Of a stretch of DNA of 64,000 nt, positions 4,703 through 59,960 are shown piece by piece. The DNA lies in assembly GCA_965285935.1 (NCBI GenBank), contig OZ260663.1:66898001-66962000 (forward strand). The letters run 5' to 3'. Numbering within the stretch: position 1 is the first letter of the stretch; every line of letters starts with the position of its first letter. The position numbers and the translations under genes were made by a program. The notes beneath the pieces were generated by a model that was given only the letters and a program-made list of their open reading frames with translations, was not told where the DNA came from and did no database searches. Source of the stretch: Ophelia neglecta. Taxonomy: Eukaryota.

Positions 4703-7700
4703 GTACTCATACAAACCAAACTTCGGTGCTTTATATTTGTTGGATTTGTTATATGGGGAGTAAAAACTGGAGCATTATGAACAGACGACGGAGCTAATCT
4801 TTAAAAAAAGACACACCGAATAACACAATTCCTGTTTTAAACAGACTAGATCAAGAAAACGCCCACCATGGCCACGCCTAGTACTGTATTGCCTTCTATA
4901 ACATGTTATTGAAAAGACAATCCCTGCGGGACGCCTTTGTTTTTAAGTTCTATAGTTCAATCTACATTTAATAACACAGCGTTATGAAAATGTCAATATG
5001 TTTTTCTTCCGGTCACTTGTTCAAAGATAGCAGTTGGTTTTTCTAGTCACGTGATTGTGGAGACCTCTTCTTCACCAAATGGATCCGAGCTACGATCCAT
5101 GGTCAACCGAAAGGGAATCCTTGCATTTGACGGAAATAATTGTTCCAAAGTTCAACGGTGACGTTCCATTCGGTTACGTGGTCCGAGATGGCGGTTCTAA
5201 TTGATTGTCCTCTAACGTTGGTGGCTGCGTCATCACCGCTAGTGGTGTTTTCCAGTTTGGGGCCTCGCAGGATTCTCACAAAAGAACATGGCATTCCAGT
5301 TGGACTAGAAAACTTCCACTTAGTTTTGGAAACAACGGTTGGAGACTTTCTGTGGATTATAAGGTCAACGAAAACGCTTTTTTCGGTCACGTTACCCAGA
5401 ATAAGATTAACTTCTGGCAACGCCCTTTCGGTTTTGTCGATCCCGGTCACTTTCTGTCTCCATCTCGAACATCAAACAGTTAATGTAAATGCGTTTTACT
5501 TTGTTACCATTATGCATTGTCTATCCGGCCATTGTTTTTTAAGTCTGACCTACTTATTCTTCTGTTTCGTAGATCTGATCCTCTTATTCTTAGAACTATG
5601 CACATACATATACATAGACATACATATATAGTATCCAATATTCCTAAGGATGCAAAGTAGTCGATCATGTGACGAGAATCATAACCGACTGTAACCTTAC
5701 TTACTGAACGCCTTTGAAGTTTAAGTACGGCTACTAGCAAAGCAGACTTGATATAATTTGAAGCAAGCCCTGGAACATATAATTCATAACATGAAACAAT
5801 TTTCCTTGGGCGAAAAGCTATCATTATCGTATTGATCGGAATCGGGATATAAATTTGAAGATATATGACCTTTTCACCCCCATCTGCCTCATTTCACAGC
5901 AATAACTGTAAAAGGGGCATCATGGGCGGTTTTTCTACATTTTTCACTATAGTATAACCTGGAAGCCATTCTCGTGCCAAATGGAAGGGATTCCTCTACA
6001 TCGCCTCCCAAATCATCTCTAAAATTAATTAGAGTCTTTGATAAATAATACGGCTGACTTGTATGGCTCGGCACGTAGCTCTCTGTCTAGCTTGCCTTAT
6101 TCGATGACCGAGCGCCTTTGAACCTGCCCGATGCCCGCGGCCCTCATATTTAGAGAACCTTTGGCTATTTTGTCGGGTAATTCTCTCGTCCTTAGTCTAC
6201 ATAGTGCTAGCCTGAGGCGACTGAGCGGTGTCAATGAGGCAGAGCCGTGCCAAACACGTACGGAAGCACACACGGATTGCCGATGCCTCACACATCCAAT
6301 CGATAGCCCCTAATAGGAAATATTATATTTGGAAGCTTTGCCGAATCGATAGAGTTGTGTGTGATGGTGATGCGGCGTGCTGACGGCGTCAGATCAGTAT
6401 TGGCAAGCCAGTACACCTACAATGCTGGTATTGATAGAAGAGGGCACGCCTAATGACTAGCTACCAGTTGCTTGGGGCTACATCAGCTTCTCCATACTTC
6501 TAGTCTTATTGATATCCAGGAGATGTCCCTTGCCCACTTTAACACCGACCCCACGTCCTCGCCATCACCCGATTGCTTCATCTACTAACAGACTACAGGA
6601 AATTCTAGTTACTTAAACCCTAGTTTCAGATTCAGTACACGGGCGTAACACGGCCACCACTAAACTCTAAATATATTTTATCCTTGGGCAGACAATTTTA
6701 TTTAGGACCAGATCTCTGGTTTCGAAGTAAGACAAATTTACGCCATTCGTTTATTCACCTGTTGAATATGTGGACCCTAAAACAGACCTGTTGCACTAAG
6801 AGTGCAATTCCCTCTTTTGCAGGATATTGAATTGGCTGTTTGGGCTTAAGTGCTGTGTTGTCTGTTGCATGGCACCCAAGCTAATGCTCGCCGCCGCTTT
6901 ATGATGTAAGTGATATTTTCTAAACAGAACCAAATTTGCTGGCATACTGGAAAATCTATAAAGCTCTATGTACAAATGAATCAGCATTTGTATTTTAAGA
7001 TTAATGTCAAGCCGTCAGGGAACCAATACAATCAATGGGCTGTCAAGCTGTTAGTTCCGAGAATGCTTGGGCGATCGACAGCACAACATAACACATAAAT
7101 GTAGTCAAGATAGGACTGTGGGAAGTGGATTTATCGAACTGCCTGTAATACTAGGGATGTTTAGAAGCTTATACGGTGAACATAATATAAAGACATGTTG
7201 GTGTATTGTTAATTTTACAACGAGGGACTACTATTGGTTCCCCTCTCCCGGTGTCCTGAAGTCACTGTGCCATTTGTTTAGTAAATTACCTGTTACCTTT
7301 GCCCAGCCATACCTTACCTGATTGAGAACGTGTATCGTAGATTACCGGCCGTATATATATATGACTCATGGTTATTGTCCATAAAGCTAGTCGCTGTCAT
7401 AATGTTGGCTCAACGTTCTGCCCCCCCCCCCCCCCCCTTATACTGGTGAGCACGAAACCAATTAAACTTGTATGGTGACAGTTTCGATCTCCGCCTACAG
7501 AGGCGTACATGACTTCCAGTTTATATTGTATTTCTGGAGACAAGCGCCAACACGCTCATCGAGCGCACTCCACAAGACAACCTGTTGGATTCCTGACGGC
7601 CTTTGTTTGGCGGCTTTTATTGTGTACCATGAGGAAAGTCATGAGCCGCCTGTTGAGATATTGACCGATGTATATTTGATTAAGAGCAATATAGGTTGGA

Positions 7701-8049
7701 GCCATTTTGATGTGCCTGAGCAGAAGGAAACTCTCCACCTCAAGTAAGAGGTAATTGAAATACCTCGAAGTTTTGAGCAGTTAGGTGGATCGGCACCATT
7801 AATATAATATATATTGTATTGCTTACAACAACATTTGTATGAGGTTTAAACGTATAATGGCCTCAATTCCCATTTGACAATTTAAGCGCCTTTATTTAAA
7901 TGAATCCAAACATTCTGCGTTAGCTTGTATAATCTCGATGATAGTATCACTATAAAGAGGTGTACTCGTGGAATGTCTTAGTTAATATAATACTATAAAA
8001 AAACAAGTTATGGCAAATGCAGAAATCTAAAAACAACCATCAGTTAATA

Positions 8050-10548
8050 ATTCAAAGGTGTGTCTTTTATTCACAAATACCTAATTAAATATTCATTTCA
8101 TTATTGCTTTGTAACACGTTATTACTTTGAACAATAACATTATTATTGCCATGGTTTTGCTACGTTCCTTATTGCATTTATAATTTGCATACATTTTAGG
8201 CTATTCGTTGACTGCAATATCTATGGCTTAATGCAAATATACAAAAAGTTGTCTAATCTCTTCAAAGTAATACTGCTCTTCAGTAACTAATATAATATAA
8301 ATTTCAAAGCAAATAAATAGAGACATTTTAATTCATTAAATAAATAAGCTTTCATTTGATAAATAAATTAATTAATAGCAATGAATCCTATTCTATAATT
8401 AAAATATGTACATTATTGCTAAAATAATTATAAGTGCAAGTTTTTATTTGGTGGTATAGGAAAATACGTCATGTAAAGTGACTTCTATAAAATGGGACTT
8501 GTATCTACATTACATGGAAAAATATCATTTGGGTGTGCTCTTGCAGAGAACAAGATTATTGCCGCTTGGTCTGGCGTCAATGGCTTGATTCTGTCGGGTT
8601 ATTTCTCATGCCTGCCGCCTGCTTCTACTCCCGCCTTTTGGCGGCGACTAGCCGGGCCGGCTCCAAGGGTTCGGAAACCTGGCACCGTTCTATTATCGGT
8701 AGCGGTAACCACTTAAGTTAGAGGGTACAATAAAGACTACACGGCCCATTCTCATGATCGTTTAGCGCCTCTCCCCTCCCCCCGGGCCCTGTTGAGCCTC
8801 CCCTCCCTCGACTTCAGGCTTTGTTGCTCACCAGTTGTTGCTGCAGACAATAGCGCCAAATCTGGACATGTCACGTTCTGCGAGCTCAAGTTATTGCTCA
8901 TCAAAGGCGAGCCGGTTGTACATTTGTCAAAGCCGGGTCGAGTCTGGCGCTAGATGCTCTGGAATGAGCCTCCCTCGCTGACTGATCACCGACAAATAAA
9001 ATGTGCCAACCTTTCAAAGCCGGATCTCACATATAAAGACGAGCCTCGCTGGTAATTTCTTCCCGACAAAGCTTGCTCGGATTTCAACATAATTCTGCGT
9101 GATTCTATTTTACATCATTAGGGGGACATAAACGATAGCTCTGCACTAAACTGGCGGCAATACAACGGCTTTTGTTATAGCATTGCGTAGGTAATATTAA
9201 TCAACGTCGGCCGTGAGAGTCCCGACGGAGACAATAGATGTAAGGGAATCATGGCAATTTATGGGAACATTTGGTTTGTAAGGCGCAGTCGGAATGCCCG
9301 AGGGATCGATTTTGCGACAAATGCCCTGCTTGGGCTTTACACTACCGGCTCTGGTGGTCCTTTGAGGACGCTGATAAATGCATTCATCAGGGCGGAGATG
9401 GCAAAAAAGCAGAGTGCAGCAAAACGCACGAGTGATGTGTGCGGCTTTCTGTCTCGAATTGCCCGCTCATATCCCTGAGAAGGGTGATTCATTCGTGACA
9501 GAACGTGCGCAACAGGCCCTAACACCGGTCCCGGCCGCCAGAAAAAGGCGTCATTACTGGCTTTCATTTTCAAATTGAATTTGCCAGGCGTGGAATGGTG
9601 GAATCAGGTGGCCTGCGATTCGGCCTGGTTATGGATTGCTCCTCCTCGCTTGGTTGGCTTCTCACACGGCCGGAAGATAGCTGGATACTCGTATGTGTAT
9701 TGGCCATAAGGGAGAAGGGACAAGGGCTGGGGTCCGCAATATTCTTAGGGGGGAGGGGGGGGGGGGACTCACTGACTCCTCCATCACCGCCACCACCATA
9801 GCACTATAGCACTACTCGGGCTAATTGTAAGGCGGGTACTCTACTTATCTTTACAGTTGGACACCCTATGGCATTATGTAAATAGACCAACAGAAGAATT
9901 ATGGCAACATGGCGGAGGTGTCGGTTCGATCGATGGGCTTTAAATTCCTGGCGAGGCGCCTTGATTGATTGAAGACGGGTGAAAGGTCCCTCGAACCCTC
10001 TATGTGTCTTTGGGGAGATAGCAGTTATCGCCCTTTCTTAATTTCCTCCGAAATAATGTCACTGAAAATGAATGCGGCATTGAAACCCGATAAGCGGAGA
10101 TTCAGTGCAGGCCAAATACCAGTCCTACCCGTATAATAGCACACACTGTAATCCTGCTTTAAGCCCTACAGGACAACACGCGAGTGATAATGAGCTTTGA
10201 GACCGTTTTTGACTAGACACACTGGTTACTGACTGGTATACTTATGTTCTCATTTTTTTTAAAAAGAAAAAAAAGTATTTGAACAGTTTCTTGGAGTTCA
10301 CATCAAGACTTTCCTGCACAAAAAGTGCCGAGTTTCACCGAATACGCCTATTTTCGTTGTGTCTATATTTTGCCAAACATGGCTGGAATGTCCAATTGAA
10401 TAAAGAGCACGTCCTTCTGCAGTTCCTTCTCATTAAGTCCAGTATAAACACAATTACATAAATAAGTTGGGTTATGCTGTGGATCAGGTCCACTGAGATT
10501 CATTGAGCGACTAAGTTTGAGGGTGGATGAGCGGTTTTCTCAATCCGT
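8050..10548 (-). other. Putative long 3' UTR of scrt-A
   Basis: AU-rich distal segment at about 7960-8520 with minus-strand AATAAA at 8443-8448, 8066-8071 and 7891-7896, ATTTA elements and dense miRNA seed matches. The exact 3' end is unknown. Confidence 0.5.
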
Positions 10549-13194
10549 CTACTCCGGTTCCTTCAGACACGCCGACTCGTAATGTTTGTTCAGATAAGAC
10601 TTGAGAGCAAACGACTTGTTGCACCTTTTACACTGATAGTGTTTGAAGGCGGAGTGGGTCTGCATGTGAGCCCGAAGGTTAGAGCGGTCAGCGAAGGCCT
10701 TGCCGCAGTGGGCACAGCCGTACGGCTTGTCACCCGAGTGGGAGCGAAGATGGCCCTGGAGCAACCATGGCCGCGAAAAGGATTTCCCGCAAAACGTACA
10801 GCAATGTTTGAGTTCGTGAGTGAGTAGATGCATGCTGAGGGCGGGCATGCTGACGTAGACTTTGCGGCAGTGGGGACATTTCTTGGCCTGCTGGGAGTCG
10901 AGACTTCGGTGGGTTTGTTTATGCCGGGAAAGGTTCGAGGAGGTGGCGTAGTGTTTGCCGCACTCACTACATGTAAACCGCTGTTTCTTGTCTTCAGTTT
11001 CTACCGGTTTCTTTCGTTTTTTAGAGCGTCCATCGCTGACTAAAAAGGCGTCGTATGTGTAGCCGACAGTGACGCTGTTCTCAAAGTTGGCGTCTGTTTT
11101 CTCAGTCTCGTCTGCCGTACAGAAGTCTTCGGTGGTGCTGGGAACTTCGGACTGCGTAGATGAGGGCGAGGTCGGGGCGCTGTTGGGCAAGGAAACGCTC
11201 TCAGCATCACTCTCGCTCTCTGCTTTGCCCTCCACTCGATGGTCCTGGCAGGGTGTCGGCCGGATCAGTTCACTGATGTAACCTGCAACAGAGAATAAAA
11301 TGGAGCATTGAGGCTCGTAGTCATGTAAGGGATTCAAAGGCACATTCCCTGAGGACCAATTTTCAACATGATTGGGCCTTACATGAAATGGGATTGATGC
11401 ACTGGGTGAGGTATTAGAAATAGTAGCCATTCGTGCACTTCAAAGTGTCAACTAACGGGCTTTGGTAACAGTAAATGAAGGCACAATAATGAAATATGTG
11501 TTCAATACCGCTGTGCTCAGCCAAGCTTCAAATCAGCGCAAGCCTTGGGTCAGGAGGTGGAAGGAAGGTGGGGGTGATTTACCGTAGCGGTAGGGAACGC
11601 AGGAGGGGAGCAGGTGGTCCGACCAGAAGGGCAACAGGTGATGGGAGAGAGATCTGCCGGCGGGCAGTGGCTTACTCCCCGGGCGCACCCGGCCTGCACC
11701 GCACTGTCTGTGGTACCCAAACAACCCCGGGGTCACTAACGGTCTCGATAAGCTCATCTGTACACTATTAGATGCAAGGGAGCAGGTGGGAAGCTGGACG
11801 ACACACAAAACATACCGATAAATGGGGTTTCTATTACACAACGGGCCCAGATATGACAGGCTGGTTACTGCTGTCGTCTGCCGACATTACCGTGTCATTG
11901 TCGAGAAAGGCACCGGTGGAGAAAGTTCCAGAAACGTGATACTGGACTCACCTTACCTTGTGCTCACCAGAGCTACAGGTGAGGCAGCTACCTGATGACT
12001 TTTTAATGAATTGATGAGTAACAAATTAGTCCACCTGAGCACTGCTCCTGCCTTTGTAGGTTGAGATTTCAAAGTGGCTGGCTCAATGTGAAATCAGAGA
12101 GAGAGGCTGGCTGCCACAAGAAACATGTGCACCCATTTCAATGGGGAGTCATTTGGCCAAGGGCGATTACAAATCTACCGTTAAGGCCCATGATTAATCG
12201 AATAAGTCACTAATCATTTGCCTTTCACCGGCTAGCCCATCGAGTTTTTCTTAATACTAGTGCTTAAGCCTACTTCCAGGTACGAAAATTGCATCGCTAT
12301 TCTGGTATGTAGCAAGAACACATAAATTGAGCAATTCTATAGCGCAGAACGCTGCCAAACACGGCATCTGGGGAGAATTTTGCATGCCAAGCGGCCATCA
12401 GTAGATCCTTACCCGTTCCTAAAGACAAGACAGTCAATGGACAAAGACTTACTGAAGCAACAGTCACCCTTCATACGCCCCGATTATTGCCTATGATTGG
12501 CCAATCTCGTCGGAATAAGCACAGAGAAATAGGACAAGATTTCCCGGCCAGGGCATTGTACTGGTCAGAAGCATCATTAGGGACTTTGATAGAACATTTA
12601 TGGCCCGGACTAAGCCTATTTGCCGTCAATATCTCTCCACTCGGCGCTCAGATGAAAGTTACTCCGAAACAAATCTAGCCGAACCTTCCACTCGCATTAA
12701 CAAATCGATACTAACTACTATGTACTTCAAAGGCGAGCCTCCCAAATGCGAACTCTAAATGTTTTCGAAAATAGGAATTTATATATTAGAGCCATTTCAA
12801 TTACTATCGCCACAGTGAGTCCATTCATTAAGACAAACCCTACCGCGTAGTCAAGTGGCAATTCCCTCATTCCCCCTCTTACTATTACATCCATTGACAA
12901 GAATGCCTAGCGTAGCTGGCAATTGCAGCAAATTACCTGGCAATGGTTCATTACGACCCATAAAAGCCTTTGATCCCCGATCATTACATGCAGTATGAGA
13001 ATGTAAATGGGGTACATACCGTTGCAGATTTTAACCGGAAGGGGCTGTGCCAAGTCCGGTGGGGTGTAGGGGGTGGCTGCATACTCAGTCACCGAGGGTG
13101 GTAGTCCCATGTCCCGAAAACACTTAGAGTAGGGACGGGAGGAGTAATCCTCCCCCCTTCTCTCGGCTTTCTTGATCAGAAATGACCGAGGCAT
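10549..13194 (-). CDS. scrt: Scratch-family (Snail superfamily) zinc-finger repressor, paralog A; complement(join(10549..11282,13020..13194)), 302 aa
   Basis: Exon 1 starts with the SNAG motif MPRSFLIKK (ATG at 13194) and ends AAC G|gtatgt. The acceptor ttttattctctgttgcag|GT TAC restores the frame (ICNG/YISE). Exon 2 encodes the Scratch domain GYTYDAFLVSDGRSKKR and five fingers, from [21 protein letters not shown] to [22 protein letters not shown] (last finger C2HC). 175+734=909 nt. Confidence 0.96.
11283..13019 (-). other. Phase-1 GT-AG intron of scrt-A (1737 nt)
   Basis: Donor GTATGT at 13019 and polypyrimidine tract plus CAG acceptor at 11283 on the minus strand; same position as the scrt-B intron. 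Confidence 0.93.
11611..12037. promoter_or_regulatory. Intronic CAGGTG E-box cluster, including a perfect Scratch consensus site
   Basis: CAGGTG/CACCTG at 11611, 11635, 11783, 11976 and 12032; GCAACAGGTG at 11631-11640. Confidence 0.6.
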
Positions 13195-13559
13195 CCTGCA
13201 AACACTCAAGTCCTGTGATTGTGCTACTGATAGCAGCAAAGGCAGTGGCAAGAAGGATTTTCACGCTGGTTTGTCAGATTCCTGACACTCCGCTGCCTTC
13301 CTGTAGCGCTATGAGTTATCCTCGGCAATCGGGAGTCTTTTGAAGGGCGCTGAAGTCTTTAGAGTGAGTCACGGAGAGCCACAAATAACGTGCTGAAGGC
13401 TGAGCTATTGATGTCGTCTGGTGGCGCGCTCCTCTCGCGCCAAACTGTTGCTTCCACAAGTCTGTTGCTGCCGACTGGTTGTGCCTGGTGTTCTCGGTAG
13501 CGTCAACACGGTCAACCATGTAGGCACGGAGGCGCAATCGGCTTTATGGACACACCCGT

Positions 13560-25695: not shown

Positions 25696-26874
25696 CTCTC
25701 TAGAGGAAGCAGCCCCTGAGGGATGGACTCTGAAGGACACAGACTCCGGGGCAAGCCTGTGCTAAGGAAAGGACTCTGGAGGAAGCTATCTCTAAGGGAA
25801 GGACTCCGGAGGAAGCTAACTCTAAGGGAAGGACTCCGTAGGAAGCAATCTCTGAGCGGAGGACTCCAAAGGAAGCAATCTCTAAGGGGCGGACTCCGAA
25901 GGAAGCTACCTCCAAGGCAAGGAATCGGAAGAAAGCAGCCTCTGAGTAAAGGACTCTGCAGGAAGCAATGTCTGAGGGAAGCACTCCAATGGACATGGAT
26001 TCTGTGGATAGGACTCCGAAGAAAGCTGACACAGAGGAAAGGTCTCCAAAAGAAACTCCGGGGAAGGACTCCCGAAAGAAGCAGCGTTTGAGGGAAGGAA
26101 TCCAAAGGAAGCAGCCCCTGAGGAAAGCAATCTCTGCGGGGAACACTCAAAATGATGCAGACTCCGATCGAAGGACTCTGATCGAAGGACTCTGATCGAA
26201 GCAGAATCCGAGGAAAGGACTCCAAAGGAAGCAGACTGGGGGAGGACTTCGAAAAAAGCAGAATCTGAGGGGAGTACTCCAAAGGATCCAGCAACGGAGT
26301 GAAGGGCTCCTAAGGAAGCAGACTCGGGGGAAGGATTCAGAAAGAAGCAGACTCTGAGGGAATGCCTCCAAATGTTCCAGAAACGGAGTGAAGGACGCCA
26401 AAGAAAGTAGCCATCCCAAAGAAGAATGAAGAAATGTATTTCAATAAGCAAATTCTAAGGAAAGCACTCCACAGGAAGCAGATTCTGTGGAAATAACTCC
26501 AAAGAAAGAAGTCTTCGAGGGAGGGCTCCTAAAATTGGGGATCGCAGGGAATGACTCCAAGGAAAGAAGATTCTGATGGAAGCAATCCGAAGACAGCAGA
26601 CTCTGAGAAAAGGACTCCGAAGAAAGCCGACTATGAGGATATGCCTTCAATTAAAGCTGACCCTAGGAAAAGGACTCCGAAGTAAGCAGGCTCCGAGGGA
26701 AGGACTGCAAAGGAATCAGACTGTGAAGTAAGGATTCTAAGTCAAACAGACTTGGAGGGGAGAACTCCGAAGGAAGTAGACTCTAGGGGAAAGTCTGCGA
26801 AGGAAGCGACACCGATACATAAGAGCGGATTCTGAAAGCAATACTTCCGAGGGAAACAGAATCCGAAGGAAGCC
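25696..26874. repeat. Degenerate purine-rich 30-bp tandem repeat, roughly 35-40 copies
   Basis: Consensus about aggactccgaaggaagcagactctgaggga; the 30-nt period is clear at 25770-26040 and gives 10-aa periodic ORFs on both strands. Confidence 0.9.
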
Positions 26875-41271: not shown

Positions 41272-44222
41272 CCCCACTCCTACGAGGCCATGGGGCGTCT
41301 AGGGGCCAAGTCTCAACTATCCACTTCTCTCAGGCCAGGGGGTCTACTGGTGAAGTCATAAGACTCCCCACTCCTACCAGACCATGGGGCGTCTAGGGGC
41401 CAAGTCTCAACTATCCACTTCTCTCAGGCCAGGGGGTCTAGTGGTTAAGTCATAAGACTCCCACTCTTACCAGACCATGGGGCGTGTAGGGGCCAAGTCT
41501 CAACTATCCACTTCTCTCAGGCCAGGGGGTCTACTGGTTAAGTCATAAGACTCCCCACTCCTACCAGACCATGGGGCGTGTAGGGGCCAAGTCTCAACTA
41601 TCCACTTCTCTCAGGCCAGGGGGTCTAGTGGTTAAGTCATAAGACTCCCACTCTTACCAGACCATGGGGCGTGTAGGGGCCAAGTCTCAACTATCCACTT
41701 CTCTCAGGCCAGGGGGTCTACTGGTTAAGTCATAAGACTCCCCACTCCTACCAGACCATGAGGCGTCTAGGGGCCAAGTCCCAAGACTATCCACTTCTCC
41801 CAGGCCAGGGGGTCTACTGGTGAAGTCATAAGACTCCCCACTCCTACCAGACCATGGGACGTCTAGGGGCCAAGTCCCAAGACTATCCACTTCTCTCAGG
41901 CCAGGGGGTCTACTGGTGAAGTCACAAGACTCCCCACCCCTACCAGACCATGGGACGTCTAGGGGCCAAGTCCCAAGACTATCCACTTCTCCCAGGCCAG
42001 GGGGTCTACTGGTGAAGTCATAAGACTCCCCACTCCTACCAGACCATGGGGCGTGTAGGGGCCAAGTCTCAACTATCCACTTCTCTCAGGCCAGGGGGTC
42101 TACTGGTTAAGTCATAAGACTCCCCACTCCTACCAGACCATGGGGCGTGTAGGTGCCAAGTCCCAAGACTATCCACTCCCCCAGGCCAGGGGGTCTACTG
42201 GTGAAGTCATAAGACTCCCCACTCCTACCAGACCATGGGGCGTGTAGGGGCCAAGTCTCAACTATCCACTTCTCCCAGGCCAGGGGGTCTACTGGTTAAG
42301 TCATAAGACTCCCCACTCCTACCAGACCATGGGTCGTGTAGGGGCCAAGTATCAACTATCCACTTCTCTCAGGCCAGGGGGTCTACTGGTTAAGTCATAA
42401 GACTCCCCACTCCTACCAGACCATGGGGCGTGTAGGGGCCAAGTCTCATCTATCCACTTCTCTCAGGCCAGGGGGTCTACTGGTTAAGTCATAAGACTCC
42501 CCACTCCTACCAGACCATGGGGCGTGTAGGGGCCAAGTCTCAACTATCCACTTCTCCCAGGCCAGGGGGTCTACTGGTTAAGTCATAAGACTCCCCACTC
42601 CTACCAGACCATGGGGCGTCTAGGGGCCAAGTCTCAACTATCCACTTCTCCCAGGCCAGGGGGTCTACTGGTTAAGTCATAAGACTCCCCACTCCTACCA
42701 GACCATGGGGCGTGTAGGGGCCAAGTCTCAACTATCCACTTCTCTCAGGCCAGGGGGTCTAGTGGTTAAGTCATAAGACTCCCACTCCTACCAGACCATG
42801 GGGCGTGTAGGGGCCAAGTCTCAACTATCCACTTCTCTCAGGCCAGGGGGTCTACTGGTTAAGTCATAAGACTCCCCACCCCACTCCTACCAGACCATGG
42901 GGCGTCTAGGGGCCAAGTCTCAATATCCACTTCTCCCAGGCCAGGGGGTCTACTGGTTAAGTCATAAGACTCCCCACTCCTACCAGACCATGGGGCGTGT
43001 AGGGGCCAAGTCTCAACTATCCACTTCTCTCAGGCCAGGGGGTCTAGTGGTTAAGTCATAAGACTCCCACTCTTACCAGACCATGGGGCGTGTAGGGGCC
43101 AAGTCTAAACTATCCACTTCTCTCAGGCCAGGGGGTCTACTGGTTAAGTCATAAGACTCCCCACTCCTACCAGACCATGAGGCGTCTAGGGGCCAAGTCC
43201 CGAGACTATACACTTCTCCCAGGCCAGGGGGTCTACTGGTGAAGTCATAAGACTCCCCACTCCTACCAGACCATGGGACGTCTAGGGGCCAAGTCCCAAG
43301 ACTATCCACTTCTCCCAGGCAAGGGGGTCTACTGGTGAAGTCATAAGACTCCCCACTCCTACCAGACCATGGGACGTCTAGGGGCCAAGTCCCAAGACTA
43401 TCCACTTCTCTCAGGCCAGGGGGTCTACTGGTTAAGTCATAAGACTCCCCACTCCTACCAGACCATGGGGCGTCTTGGGGCCAAGTCCCAAGACTATCCA
43501 CTTCTCCCAGGCCAGGGGGTCTACTGGTTAAGTCATAAGACTCCCCACTCCTACCAGACCATGGGGCGTCTTGGGGCCAAGTCCCAAGACTATCCACTTC
43601 TCCCAGGCCAGGGGGTCTACTGGTTAAGTCATAAGACTCCCCACTCCTACCAGTCCATGGGACGTCTAGGGGCCAAGTCCCAAGTCTATCCACTTCTCCC
43701 AGGCCAGGGGGTCTACTGGTGAAGTCATAAGACTCCCCACTCCTACCAGACCATGGGGCGTCTAGGGGCCAAGTCCCAAGACTATCCACTTCTCCCAGGC
43801 CAGGGGGTCTACTGGTGAAGTCACAAGACTCCCCACTCCTACCAGACCATGGGGCGTGTAGGGGCCAAGTCCCAAGACTATACACTTCTCCCAGGCCAGG
43901 GGGTCTACTGGTAAAGTCACAAGACTCCCCACTCCTACCAGGCCATGGGGCGTGTAGGGGCCAAGTCCCAAGACTATACACTTCTCCCAGGCCAGGGGGT
44001 CTACTGGTGAAGTCACAAGACTCCCCACTCCTACCAGGCCATGGGGCGTGTAGGGGCCAAGTCCCAAGACTATACACTTCTCCCAGGCCAGGGGGTCTAC
44101 TGGTTAAGTCATAAGACTCCCCACTCCTACCAGACCATGGGACGTCTAGGGACCAAGTCCCAAGACTATACACTTCTCCCAGGCCAGGGGGTCTACTGGT
44201 GAAGTCACAAGACTCCCCACTC
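41272..44222. repeat. Tandem minisatellite/satellite, 96/94-bp unit, about 31 copies
   Basis: Unit ccccactcctaccagaccatggggcgtctaggggccaagtcccaagactatccacttctcccaggccagggggtctactggtgaagtcataagact repeated head-to-tail; the 94-bp variant has tctcaactat. Confidence 0.98.
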
Positions 44223-56473: not shown

Positions 56474-58011
56474 ATGCCGCGCTCGTTCTTGATAAAAAAG
56501 AAGGGAAAGTCTGAGAAGAGGATAGATGAGATCATTCGAGCGTTTGCTAAGAAGGATATTCACGACAATGATAGTCGACCCGTGGTGACCGAGCCTGTCA
56601 TCTCGGCCGTGGCGCCCTTTACTCCGGCGATGGTACAGCCCATTCAACCCCTAGCAGTCAGACTCTGTAACGGTAAGAACTTTTAATTGCTATGATTGTT
56701 AACTGATCTCGTTACTGGTAGGCCTATCTGCGTTTAAAACGAGGGAAAATATGTTATGATAGTCAACTAAAGGTTTGTTTAATTGGAAACTTAAGACAGC
56801 CAGCGTGCTTTGAATCATTTTTTTGTTCCTATTCATGTGTGATTAAATGGAGGAACCTATAGGGCCTACAATCATTTATTTTATGATGAAATGTGTAAGA
56901 TTTTGTAACGAAGTGTTTACCAACTATATATTTTTACTTCACTTAAAACAGTCGATGGACGATATCCGCTTTATTGCATTAATGCACATTTTTTTATACA
57001 AATATCATATCAAGTTGATCGGTGATTCCATTTACCAAAGCTTTCATTTTTTTTTTGCAAAAGAACAATGACTTATATGTCCTTGTATCTAATGTAGTTA
57101 CCTTCCCCTCAAAGACGGTCTAAAGTTTACATTGCGCATGCACGGGTTGTACTTTCCCCAAAAGAAAGTCAGAAATTGATATTTATCTTTGGTTTATTTC
57201 AGGCTACATTCATGACGTACTCTCGGCTTTTCCGTACTTTGAGCCCCGGGCCTACAGCACGTCGCCCATTAAGAAAGAAACTCCGGAGGAGGAGGCCCGT
57301 TACCGACATACCCCCTCCAGGGACCCCATTCCCGCCGAGAAGAGGGAAATCCCGAGTCCGACTAGTTCCACTCTCAGCTGCCGCTCGGACAAGTCGTCGG
57401 CCGTCGGCTCGCCTCTGTCGCCCTCGTCGACAGGGTCAGCCCGAAAACCGACCGGCTTTCAAGAGGGTATCACCGTCGGTTACACGTATGACGCTTTCTT
57501 CGTGAGCGATGGTCGCTCGCGGAAGCGGAACCCGCTGGGGCTCCCCGACCCCATCAGACAGCGCTACACGTGTAACGAGTGCGGCAAACACTACGCAACT
57601 TCCTCGAACCTCTCCCGACATAAACAAACCCACCGAAGTCTCGACTCACAGCAGGCCAAGAAATGTCCCCACTGCGGCAAAGTGTACGTCAGCATGCCCG
57701 CCCTCAGCATGCACATCCTCACCCACAACCTGAGACACGAGTGTGCAGCATGCGGCAAGTCCTTCTCTCGACCATGGCTTCTCCAGGGGCACATGAGGTC
57801 CCACTCGGGCGAAAAGCCCTACGGCTGTGCCCACTGCGGCAAAGCCTTCGCCGACCGCTCGAACCTCCGGGCTCACATGCAGACCCACTCCGCCTTCAAA
57901 CATTATAAGTGTAAGAGATGTGACAAATCGTTCGCCCTCAAGTCGTACCTTAACAAGCATTACGAGTCGGCGTGTCTCAAGGATGACGGGATCATCGACG
58001 TAGTGGCCTGA
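56474..58011 (+). CDS. scrt: Scratch-family zinc-finger repressor, paralog B; join(56474..56672,57203..58011), 335 aa
   Basis: [13 protein letters not shown] at ATG 56474 (A at -3). Donor AAC G|gtaaga and acceptor tttatttcag|GC TAC give LCNG/YIHD. Exon 2 is open through [17 protein letters not shown] and five Scratch-type fingers to TGA at 58011. 199+809=1008 nt. Confidence 0.96.
56673..57202 (+). other. Phase-1 GT-AG intron of scrt-B (530 nt)
   Basis: GTAAGA donor at 56673 and TTTATTTCAG acceptor ending at 57202; the join keeps the reading frame. Confidence 0.93.
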
Positions 58012-59960
58012 ACCAACATTTAATATATAAACTTGATTATTAAACCAGACAGAGGTTTATTTTTCTACTGACTGTGAGTTGTGACTGCGGTGTGTTGAAC
58101 TATTTGGCAAAATTCGAAGACAAAAAAGTTGAACAACTTTAATTGTGCAATATGGATTGTTCTAGTCAAATTAACCAACCAACATATTAATTATTAATAT
58201 GACAGAAAAGATGAGTTTTGTTAATCTCAGCTTGGGTGTGTATGAAAATATTTTTGTCTAATGGTTATTCCGATTCCAATAGCTATTTATGTCTAAACTG
58301 CTAATCGTTTACAGTCTTACATGTTTATCACTTACAAGACAAAGATGGAGCTTTCAAAAACCAAATAATTATCTCCCCTATTTATGCAAAATGTAATGCA
58401 ATGAGCCTTTTTGATCTGAAATTAATGAGGTACCGTAGATATTCATTGCAATGAGGCATCTGACCCATGTTCCGATTAGTTTTGTCATTCGGTTTATCAT
58501 GGCACGCCGATCATTGTGCGATGATTGTATTGCCGTTATCCATCATTAACTGTGGTGTGGAAAAGATCTCGACATCAGGTGTCTTTTGGGCCCTCGCGAC
58601 ATTATTGCCATAAATCGGGTGTGCTGATTGCCACAAATCGGCCAGCTGATGGCCACGTGGTGGTTGATGATACGACCCCTGCTTTGATTTGTGCGCCTGC
58701 TCGCTATGTGCCCTGTTAGATGTCACCTCTCTGGTCCTCGGCAACACAATGAATGAGGTTTAGTACAGCAGTTTGAACCAATTAGGGACCAAGCAAATGT
58801 ATCAACTGGTTGCTCTTTTAAGATGGGAGGTTTTGTGATGAATCACACGCTGATTGATGATGCTTATTAAAAGCGATGACAAATATTGCCTGGTGTAGGG
58901 AGCGAGAGACTGGCGGAGACCGAGGCAGAGAGGGGCCGCTGATAAAACTCACCTCTCCCCTCCTATCGTCTGTCTAATCTGGGCGAGACTTGCCAGATAT
59001 AAATGACGCCTGGGCCGTATTGGCCATACTCCGTTTGGTAGGCCCTCTTTTGGCTCATGTCGCCGGCCTCCATCGCTTCTTTGGCTTTCTCGTCACGCTA
59101 CTCAGCTCTCCGTTCTATTTCCAAAGGTCTATTTTGATGCGATAGATATAGACTCATTTGATTCCTAGTTGACCTATCGATCACGAAAATCCAAGAATAT
59201 AGAGCTCCTCAAATCTTTTGTTTTCCTCGTCAAAGGAACCGTTTTAAAGTCAAGGGCTGCTGCACACCCTAAAGAATGTTTCTTCCTCTGATTATTAATT
59301 ATGTAAAATACCCACAGAGTTTGTGGCCACTAGCTGAGCTTTAAGTCCAATTCGTTTGTAAAGTGCTCAAATCAATATTGTAGAAAGTTTTCAAAAGTGT
59401 GATTAGATGTTAAATTTCTATTATTACACGGTGTCCACAATTTAGGACCACACAATACTAGGTCTAAAATAGATTCACAGGCATAAGGGTAGCTAGGGCA
59501 ACGAAGAGAATCAAATGTCACGTATTGAGTCGGTTGATAATTATGATTAAGTAATTGTTGGGTTCACAGTGCATATAAAGTTTGAATTATATTTGATTAG
59601 CTTAATTATACATTGATTGTTTATGTGTTATATGTGATCATGTTTACTATTCACCATTATTTAATTCATTTACTTTAAAGATATACAAATCTAGTCACTT
59701 CATTGTTATGTTTTACAAGTACATTTTGCAGGTATTTATTCGGGTATTTGACATTGGACTCATCCATTTATTTATCAATTAATAAGCATTGTGCTAGTTT
59801 TCTAGCTACTTTTGCAAGAATTTAATATAGTTAATGTGCAATAATTGTGAATCGCATTGTAAAGAGCAATATTTCTAAAATATACCAATTATAATATATT
59901 TATATGACATGTGAGATATGTACATTGAAAGTTGATATTAAAACACTAGTCTTTTATGAA
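58012..59960 (+). other. Putative long 3' UTR of scrt-B
   Basis: AU-rich distal segment at about 59560-59950 with several TATTTAT elements and ATTAAA at 59937-59942 (alternative AATAAA at 60199-60204). The exact 3' end is unknown. Confidence 0.45.

Follow-up and report, generated by a model that had tools for sequence, protein, structure and literature searches.

In the Ophelia neglecta DNA analysed here (64,000 nucleotides, hereafter the window), six seed matches to miR-137, a microRNA of nerve cells, lie 1.65-2.45 kb past the stop codon of a scratch gene, a gene involved in building neurons, all in the mRNA sense. We consider it probable (roughly 0.78) that miR-137 acts through these matches in the distal part of a scratchB 3' UTR, and that they represent one instance of a miR-137-scratch link that likely goes back to the bilaterian common ancestor.

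The window encodes two scratch genes, for which the following exons were identified.

13020..13194, minus strand: coding exon 1 of the first scratch gene, with the SNAG start MPRSFLIKK (open reading frame 12907-13260; exon end placed by alignment to a homologue)
10549..11282, minus strand: coding exon 2 of the first scratch gene, with the SCRATCH domain and five zinc fingers (stop codon 10549-10551; scratchB family)
57229..58011, plus strand: zinc-finger exon of a second scratchB gene, divergent from the first

The SNAG domain is N-terminal, and the upstream exon that carries it is presumably spliced to the zinc-finger exon. In both genes the block before the five snail-type fingers aligns with named scratch proteins. 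The best named relatives of the first gene are from molluscs, ribbon worms, annelids, and a brachiopod, and a quick tree with weak support groups it near annelid sequences. PMC2688512 treats the SCRATCH domain as the hallmark of scratchB, to which vertebrate SCRT1 and SCRT2 belong. Under that scheme both window genes are scratchB, and the A and B names that an earlier note on this DNA had given them were not borne out. A third gene of the genome, at C5:54.97 Mb, lacks the SCRATCH block and would be scratchA in the same scheme. It and the three snail genes of the genome have at most one miR-137 match each in the first 2.5 kb past the stop. The two scratchB genes stand head to head, ~43 kb apart (10549-13194 on the minus strand, about 56560-58011 on the plus strand); elsewhere, a single contig carries both L034 and L042, another pair of scratch genes. 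Tandem-repeat arrays at about 41700-44200 and 25700-26450 of the window give rise to long repetitive open frames.

Past the stop codon of the first gene, the following elements were predicted.

8045..10548, minus strand: putative 3' UTR of about 2.5 kb, its end placed from the 8066 signal, with an AT-rich distal part
8443..8448, minus strand: candidate proximal poly(A) signal AAUAAA
8066..8071, minus strand: candidate main poly(A) signal AAUAAA, with CA dinucleotides and a GU/U-rich run after it

The transcript would extend to about 8045, as several indirect hints suggest. Sense-strand seed matches run along the putative UTR. The mRNA strand has no other copy of AAUAAA between the stop and 8448, and the distal putative UTR is 66-78% AT, resembling the end of the second gene. 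A single contig of a public run spans 7450-9730 unbroken, and the three contigs in which the stretch was found come from one sample. None of the 12 variants in this interval falls inside the six sites, a comparison of low power in one sample. Six of the 12 fall in the 616 nt past 8066, two of them in seed matches, which in a single sample is a weak hint.

The genome has one mir-137 hairpin (76.6 bits, against an Rfam cut-off of 56.7). Its seed was used to identify the matches, each of which pairs perfectly to nt 2-7 plus A1 and/or nt 8.

8891..8898, minus strand: miR-137 8mer (local AU 0.51)
8556..8562, minus strand: miR-137 7mer-A1 (local AU 0.51)
8413..8420, minus strand: miR-137 8mer, 23-30 nt past the 8443 signal (local AU 0.81)
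8169..8176, minus strand: miR-137 7mer-A1 with an overlapping miR-92 7mer-A1
8143..8149, minus strand: miR-137 7mer-A1
8101..8108, minus strand: miR-137 8mer with the best predicted duplex (-16.8 kcal/mol), which pairs the miRNA 3' end
7817..7823, minus strand: a seventh match, miR-137 7mer-m8, past the 8066 signal and usable only if the transcript extends
59836..59844, plus strand: second gene, perfect miR-92 8mer overlapping a miR-137 7mer-A1 (at 59838)
59865..59871, plus strand: second gene, miR-137 7mer-m8

All six plus-strand copies of TTATTGC reported earlier (8101, 8143, 8169, 8413, 8556 and 8891) are present, as are the 8mers TTATTGCT at 8101, 8413 and 8891, the remaining three being 7mer-A1, and the claimed matches at 59838 and 59865 behind the second gene. 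The 70% AT on which chance had been reckoned is wrong for the 798-nt stretch, which is 61.5% AT. Within the second gene's putative UTR, a GC-richer block (58500-59050), possibly a DNA element, holds, at 58602, a miR-137 match in antisense with a flank similar to that of the 8143 site. The flanks of the two window genes gave no meaningful alignment to each other.

Several measures set this cluster apart from its surroundings. GCAATAA occurs six times in sense and never in antisense in 8050-10548, where the seed word is the top non-homopolymer 7-mer. Shuffles preserving 2-, 3- or 4-mers give a mean of 0.22-0.52 copies per 798 nt, and in each of nine sets none of 3000 shuffles reached six copies. 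In a genome background of 40 stretches of 10 kb (400 kb), the seed word occurs at 0.11 per strand-kb; when this background is cut into 960 tiles of 800 nt, not one has more than two copies. It is the sole non-repeat 7-mer of the 64-kb window with six copies in 800 nt. However, two such clusters, of any non-repeat 7-mer, occur in the 400 kb of background. The count in the window is thus strong evidence that does not settle the matter by itself, and it called for an independent test. The matches at 8101, 8143 and 8169 are spaced by 42 and 26 nt, placing three AU-rich sites within 75 nt; miRNA sites at such spacing are near enough to cooperate. Triggers of target-directed miRNA degradation combine a seed match with extended 3' pairing around a central bulge; among the sites here, notable 3' pairing is present only at 8101, in a weak duplex.

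For the independent test, the best 80 of 229 scratch relatives were taken from metagenome contigs. Five without a stop in the contig and 12 with less than 300 nt downstream were dropped, and the other 63 were grouped by flank similarity into 41 clusters, each represented by its longest member (at most 2.5 kb; 65,306 nt in total). Downstream of the stop in these 41 loci, drawn from the best 80 of 229, AGCAATA occurs 47 times in sense and once in antisense, and the 8mer AGCAATAA 22 times in sense and not at all in antisense; upstream control flanks have six sense and three antisense copies of AGCAATA. This word, chosen beforehand, has the greatest strand bias of any 7-mer in the 41 loci and is second in enrichment, after the miR-279 match. 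With miR-92 and AATAAA overlaps removed, the counts are 43 against 3 (18 loci against 2). The enriched words extend as the seed predicts, with an A opposite nt 8 and, in 28 of 47 cases, an A opposite nt 9. Strict sites, defined as miR-137 matches that do not double as miR-92 sites, number 52 in the 41 loci, whereas 200 shuffles averaged 9.9 and never exceeded 21. Leaving out the five richest loci still gives 22 against 6.

By lineage the signal is patchy, and 11 of 41 loci reach p<=0.05. Under clade labels that are rough, from a quick tree with weak support, 12 spiralian-like loci have 18 strict sites against 3.1 expected (11 of the 18 in one locus, L024), 10 crustacean-like loci 25 against 3.2, six insect-like loci four against 1.3, and five other arthropod-like loci three against 1.2. 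Four chelicerate-like loci and two short fish loci have one each, and two bivalve loci have none. Two or more strict sites were counted in 10 of the 28 loci that reach 1,200 nt, and none in 13 of the 28, although some of these may end before the cluster. L090, the nearest locus in the quick tree, has a cluster 2.1-2.6 kb past the stop, a distance like that in the window. In the spiralian-like L024 we observed 13 miR-137 matches in 1.5 kb, 36-1448 nt past the stop and more than twice the window cluster. The window flank gave no meaningful alignment to other scratch flanks. Because flanks are unalignable between species, what recurs is how many sites there are and not where they lie, and for the same reason an ancestral link and repeated gain are not separable. 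Conservation in orthologues, proposed earlier as a check, holds patchily at the level of enrichment (47 sense to 1 antisense across the 41 loci, and in human SCRT1), but not at that of aligned positions.

Other microRNA matches are also concentrated behind scratch stops. The most enriched 7-mer there is the miR-279 match TCTAGTC (36 sense, 0 antisense, 22 of 41 loci); its signal peaks in the insect-like loci, which have few miR-137 sites. Matches to miR-92 (43 sense, 10 antisense), miR-981 (25 and 6) and miR-1 (23 and 7) are strand-biased too, as is CCAAAGA (27 and 2), which we take to be a miR-9 match. Overall, the UTRs of scratch genes give the impression of hubs on which neural miRNAs converge. 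A limited literature search listed no paper that deals with both miR-279 and scratch.

Hairpins were found in the genome for miR-1 and miR-981. At least five mir-279-like hairpins occur in 1.2 kb at G000:C8:42791595-42792772, with single copies on C2 and C12. An Rfam mir-92 search of the genome gave no hit among 57 candidates scored, and a pattern search found at least five miR-92-like copies. Five of these span 10 kb at G000:C5:82212426-82222654. The first gene's putative UTR holds the following matches.

10384-10391, minus strand: miR-1 8mer (hairpin in genome)
10353-10360, minus strand: miR-981 8mer (hairpin in genome)
10210..10217, minus strand: miR-279 8mer (hairpins in genome)
9591-9597 and 8960-8966, minus strand: miR-1 7mer-A1
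8204-8210, minus strand: miR-981 7mer-A1

Taken together, matches to miR-279, miR-1 and miR-981 number seven sense and none antisense in 7600-10548, and three sense and five antisense in the next 3 kb. Further miR-279 matches lie near the second gene, at 58161-58168 and 59690-59697 on the plus strand. A SWIRM search of the genome for LSD1, the co-repressor that the earlier note had linked to miR-137, returned genes that we read as MYSM1-like, SMARCC-like and ADA2-like, and no LSD1. At one place (L146/L155, G000:C2 near 47.25 Mb) there is an open frame of 810 residues that combines SWIRM and MPN-like parts; we read it as MYSM1-like, and it is apparently intronless there. In the excerpted human TargetScan list of miR-137 targets, LSD1 is present.

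Published tables place vertebrate scratchB genes among the predicted targets of the same microRNA. In excerpts of TargetScan 8.0 (PMC11212353), human SCRT1 has five conserved miR-137 sites (PCT 0.96) and SCRT2 one 8mer (0.91), and none of the 52 top-scoring rows has more than four conserved sites. TargetScan 6.2, whose conserved list comprises 1,144 genes, includes both as well (PMC3636510). In mice overexpressing miR-137 in neurons, excerpted supplementary tables of PMC6667145 give Scrt1 as lowered 5.86-fold in thalamus (second among 1,650 changed genes) and 3.03-fold in hippocampus (fifth among 873); the values are -2.43 in striatum and -1.34 in cerebellum, and a fifth region has no Scrt1 entry. 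Scrt2 is down in two regions in the same excerpts. These figures reflect overexpression and plain t-tests (PMC6667145), and the Scrt1 effect may be indirect. Scrt1 is named nowhere in the main text of that paper. In MIR137 knockout pig cortex, as partly tabulated, SCRT1 has a log2FC of +0.72 (p 0.037; adjusted p 0.098, which misses the authors' cut-off) and SCRT2 goes the opposite way (-0.94, p 0.30), in a comparison of two with three animals whose sign we took to mean knockout relative to wild type. In flies, scrt was included in a screen as a predicted miR-137 target, and knocking it down did not reduce eye size (PMC12338917); scrt has no row in the supplement of PMC10835047. Chick Scrt2 is fine-tuned by miR-125b, according to passages of PMC7477046.

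Four other explanations of the cluster were weighed. The earlier note had proposed that miR-137 shuts Scratch off as neurons mature, with the choice between the 8443 and 8066 signals setting the number of sites. Both hexamers are present and bracket the densest sites, and yet we find this unlikely. Excerpts of PMC6667145 report both miR-137 and Scrt1 RNAs in wild-type adult mouse brain, and Scrt1 mRNA in mouse excitatory neurons is described as 'unexpectedly stable', with a half-life of 10.8 h (passages of PMC13724279); with both RNAs present and the mRNA long-lived, damping fits better than an off-switch. As for the poly(A) choice, AATAAA is common by itself (119 per 64 kb of window, about 0.9 per strand-kb), and the downstream context of the 8443 signal is less typical than that of 8066. 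Cleavage typically falls 10-30 nt downstream of a poly(A) signal. Since the 8413-8420 site lies within that range of 8443, a cut there would likely remove four sites, not the three that had been suggested. The part of the proposal that stands is miR-137 as the likely reader of the sites, given its hairpin in the genome, the enrichment behind scratch genes, and the prediction and mouse response of SCRT1. That miR-92 is instead the main reader of the shared core GCAAUA, or that the core arises as a side effect of AU-rich ends and poly(A) signals, seems very unlikely. The genome does have its miR-92-like copies, miR-92 matches are enriched behind scratch genes (43 to 10), and one window site overlaps a miR-92 site. 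However, the U that miR-92 requires before the core is missing in five of six window sites; no A follows any of the six, so none lies within AAUAAA; and the enrichment persists when both kinds of overlap are taken out (43 to 3).

It is equally improbable that the words are transcription-factor sites in a downstream enhancer, or sites for an RNA-binding protein. Developmental genes often have downstream enhancers, and one antisense copy lies behind the second gene (58602), but a DNA element has no reason to hold to the mRNA strand, and the bias of 47 to 1 counts against it, as does the extension of the enriched words exactly according to the seed. For an RNA-binding protein, the response of mouse Scrt1 to miR-137 dose is the contrary point. 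Just as little weight goes to a cluster that arose by chance or lies outside the transcript. The two background clusters of six copies speak for chance, and the distance of the sites from the stop, together with a transcript extent that we infer, for the latter. Against chance, a word fixed in advance ranked first by strand bias in independent loci, and the locus closest in the tree, L090, has its cluster at 2.1-2.6 kb. Against a shorter transcript, the mRNA strand from the stop to 8448 offers no other AAUAAA.

If the six matches are indeed miR-137 sites, Argonaute loaded with miR-137 would bind the seeds in the distal putative UTR, with those at 8101, 8143 and 8169 near enough to act together. 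The scratch mRNA would then be deadenylated and less translated, so that the dose of the Scratch repressor would be capped, not abolished, in post-mitotic neurons. Sites for miR-279, miR-92, miR-1 and miR-981 may share in this cap. Between lineages, site number would be retained while positions turn over.

MIR137 is the locus of a top schizophrenia association (PMC6667145). Passages of PMC7018135 describe miR-137 as narrowly expressed, with sites that are nevertheless among the most constrained in vertebrates, and do not name scratch. We lean slightly towards a wider proposal, in which scratch is an ancestral miR-137 target kept since the protostome-deuterostome split via constant site turnover, and in which MIR137, a schizophrenia risk gene, has in SCRT1 a target that is strongly sensitive to its dose and has been overlooked. 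If true, a target that persisted from worms to humans would help account for the retention of miR-137. It would also direct attention to SCRT1, one of the genes that extra miR-137 lowers most in published supplements, where it is undiscussed. To our knowledge, few miRNA-target pairs are common to protostomes and vertebrates.

The mechanism is ordinary, and the mammalian and fly pairs are already in prediction tables; the miR-137-scratch pair is probably pan-bilaterian. No paper devoted to it (mir-234/ces-1 included) was found in a search that was mostly at abstract level, with subscription journals largely outside its scope. Canonical multi-site miRNA targets such as let-7/lin-41 and miR-279/nerfin-1 are genetically validated. 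Like them, the window gene is a developmental regulator with clustered 7mer and 8mer matches in its putative 3' UTR; unlike them, the window pair is a predicted one. In chick, too, miRNAs fine-tune a scratch gene (Scrt2) through its 3' UTR in the nervous system, and control by miR-125b and by miR-200b was tested with a reporter, a sponge and CRISPR (passages of PMC7477046). That system differs in its miRNAs, in having one overlapping element, and in being confined to vertebrates or amniotes, and miR-137 is absent from the text of that paper. The pair in Drosophila scrt is the same, predicted by TargetScanFly or DIANA; the passages of PMC12338917 report an RNAi screen for an eye phenotype only (none was seen) and give no site count or reporter. 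Human and mouse SCRT1 and SCRT2 share with the window gene the same miRNA, the same scratchB family and several sites per UTR, five conserved in human SCRT1 against six here, according to excerpts of PMC11212353 and PMC3636510, where the mammalian pair takes up a single row in a list of 1,314 predicted targets and goes without discussion. The window gene differs from this mammalian pair in being spiralian, in having sites that do not align, and in carrying matches to the protostome miR-279 and miR-981 in the same putative UTR.
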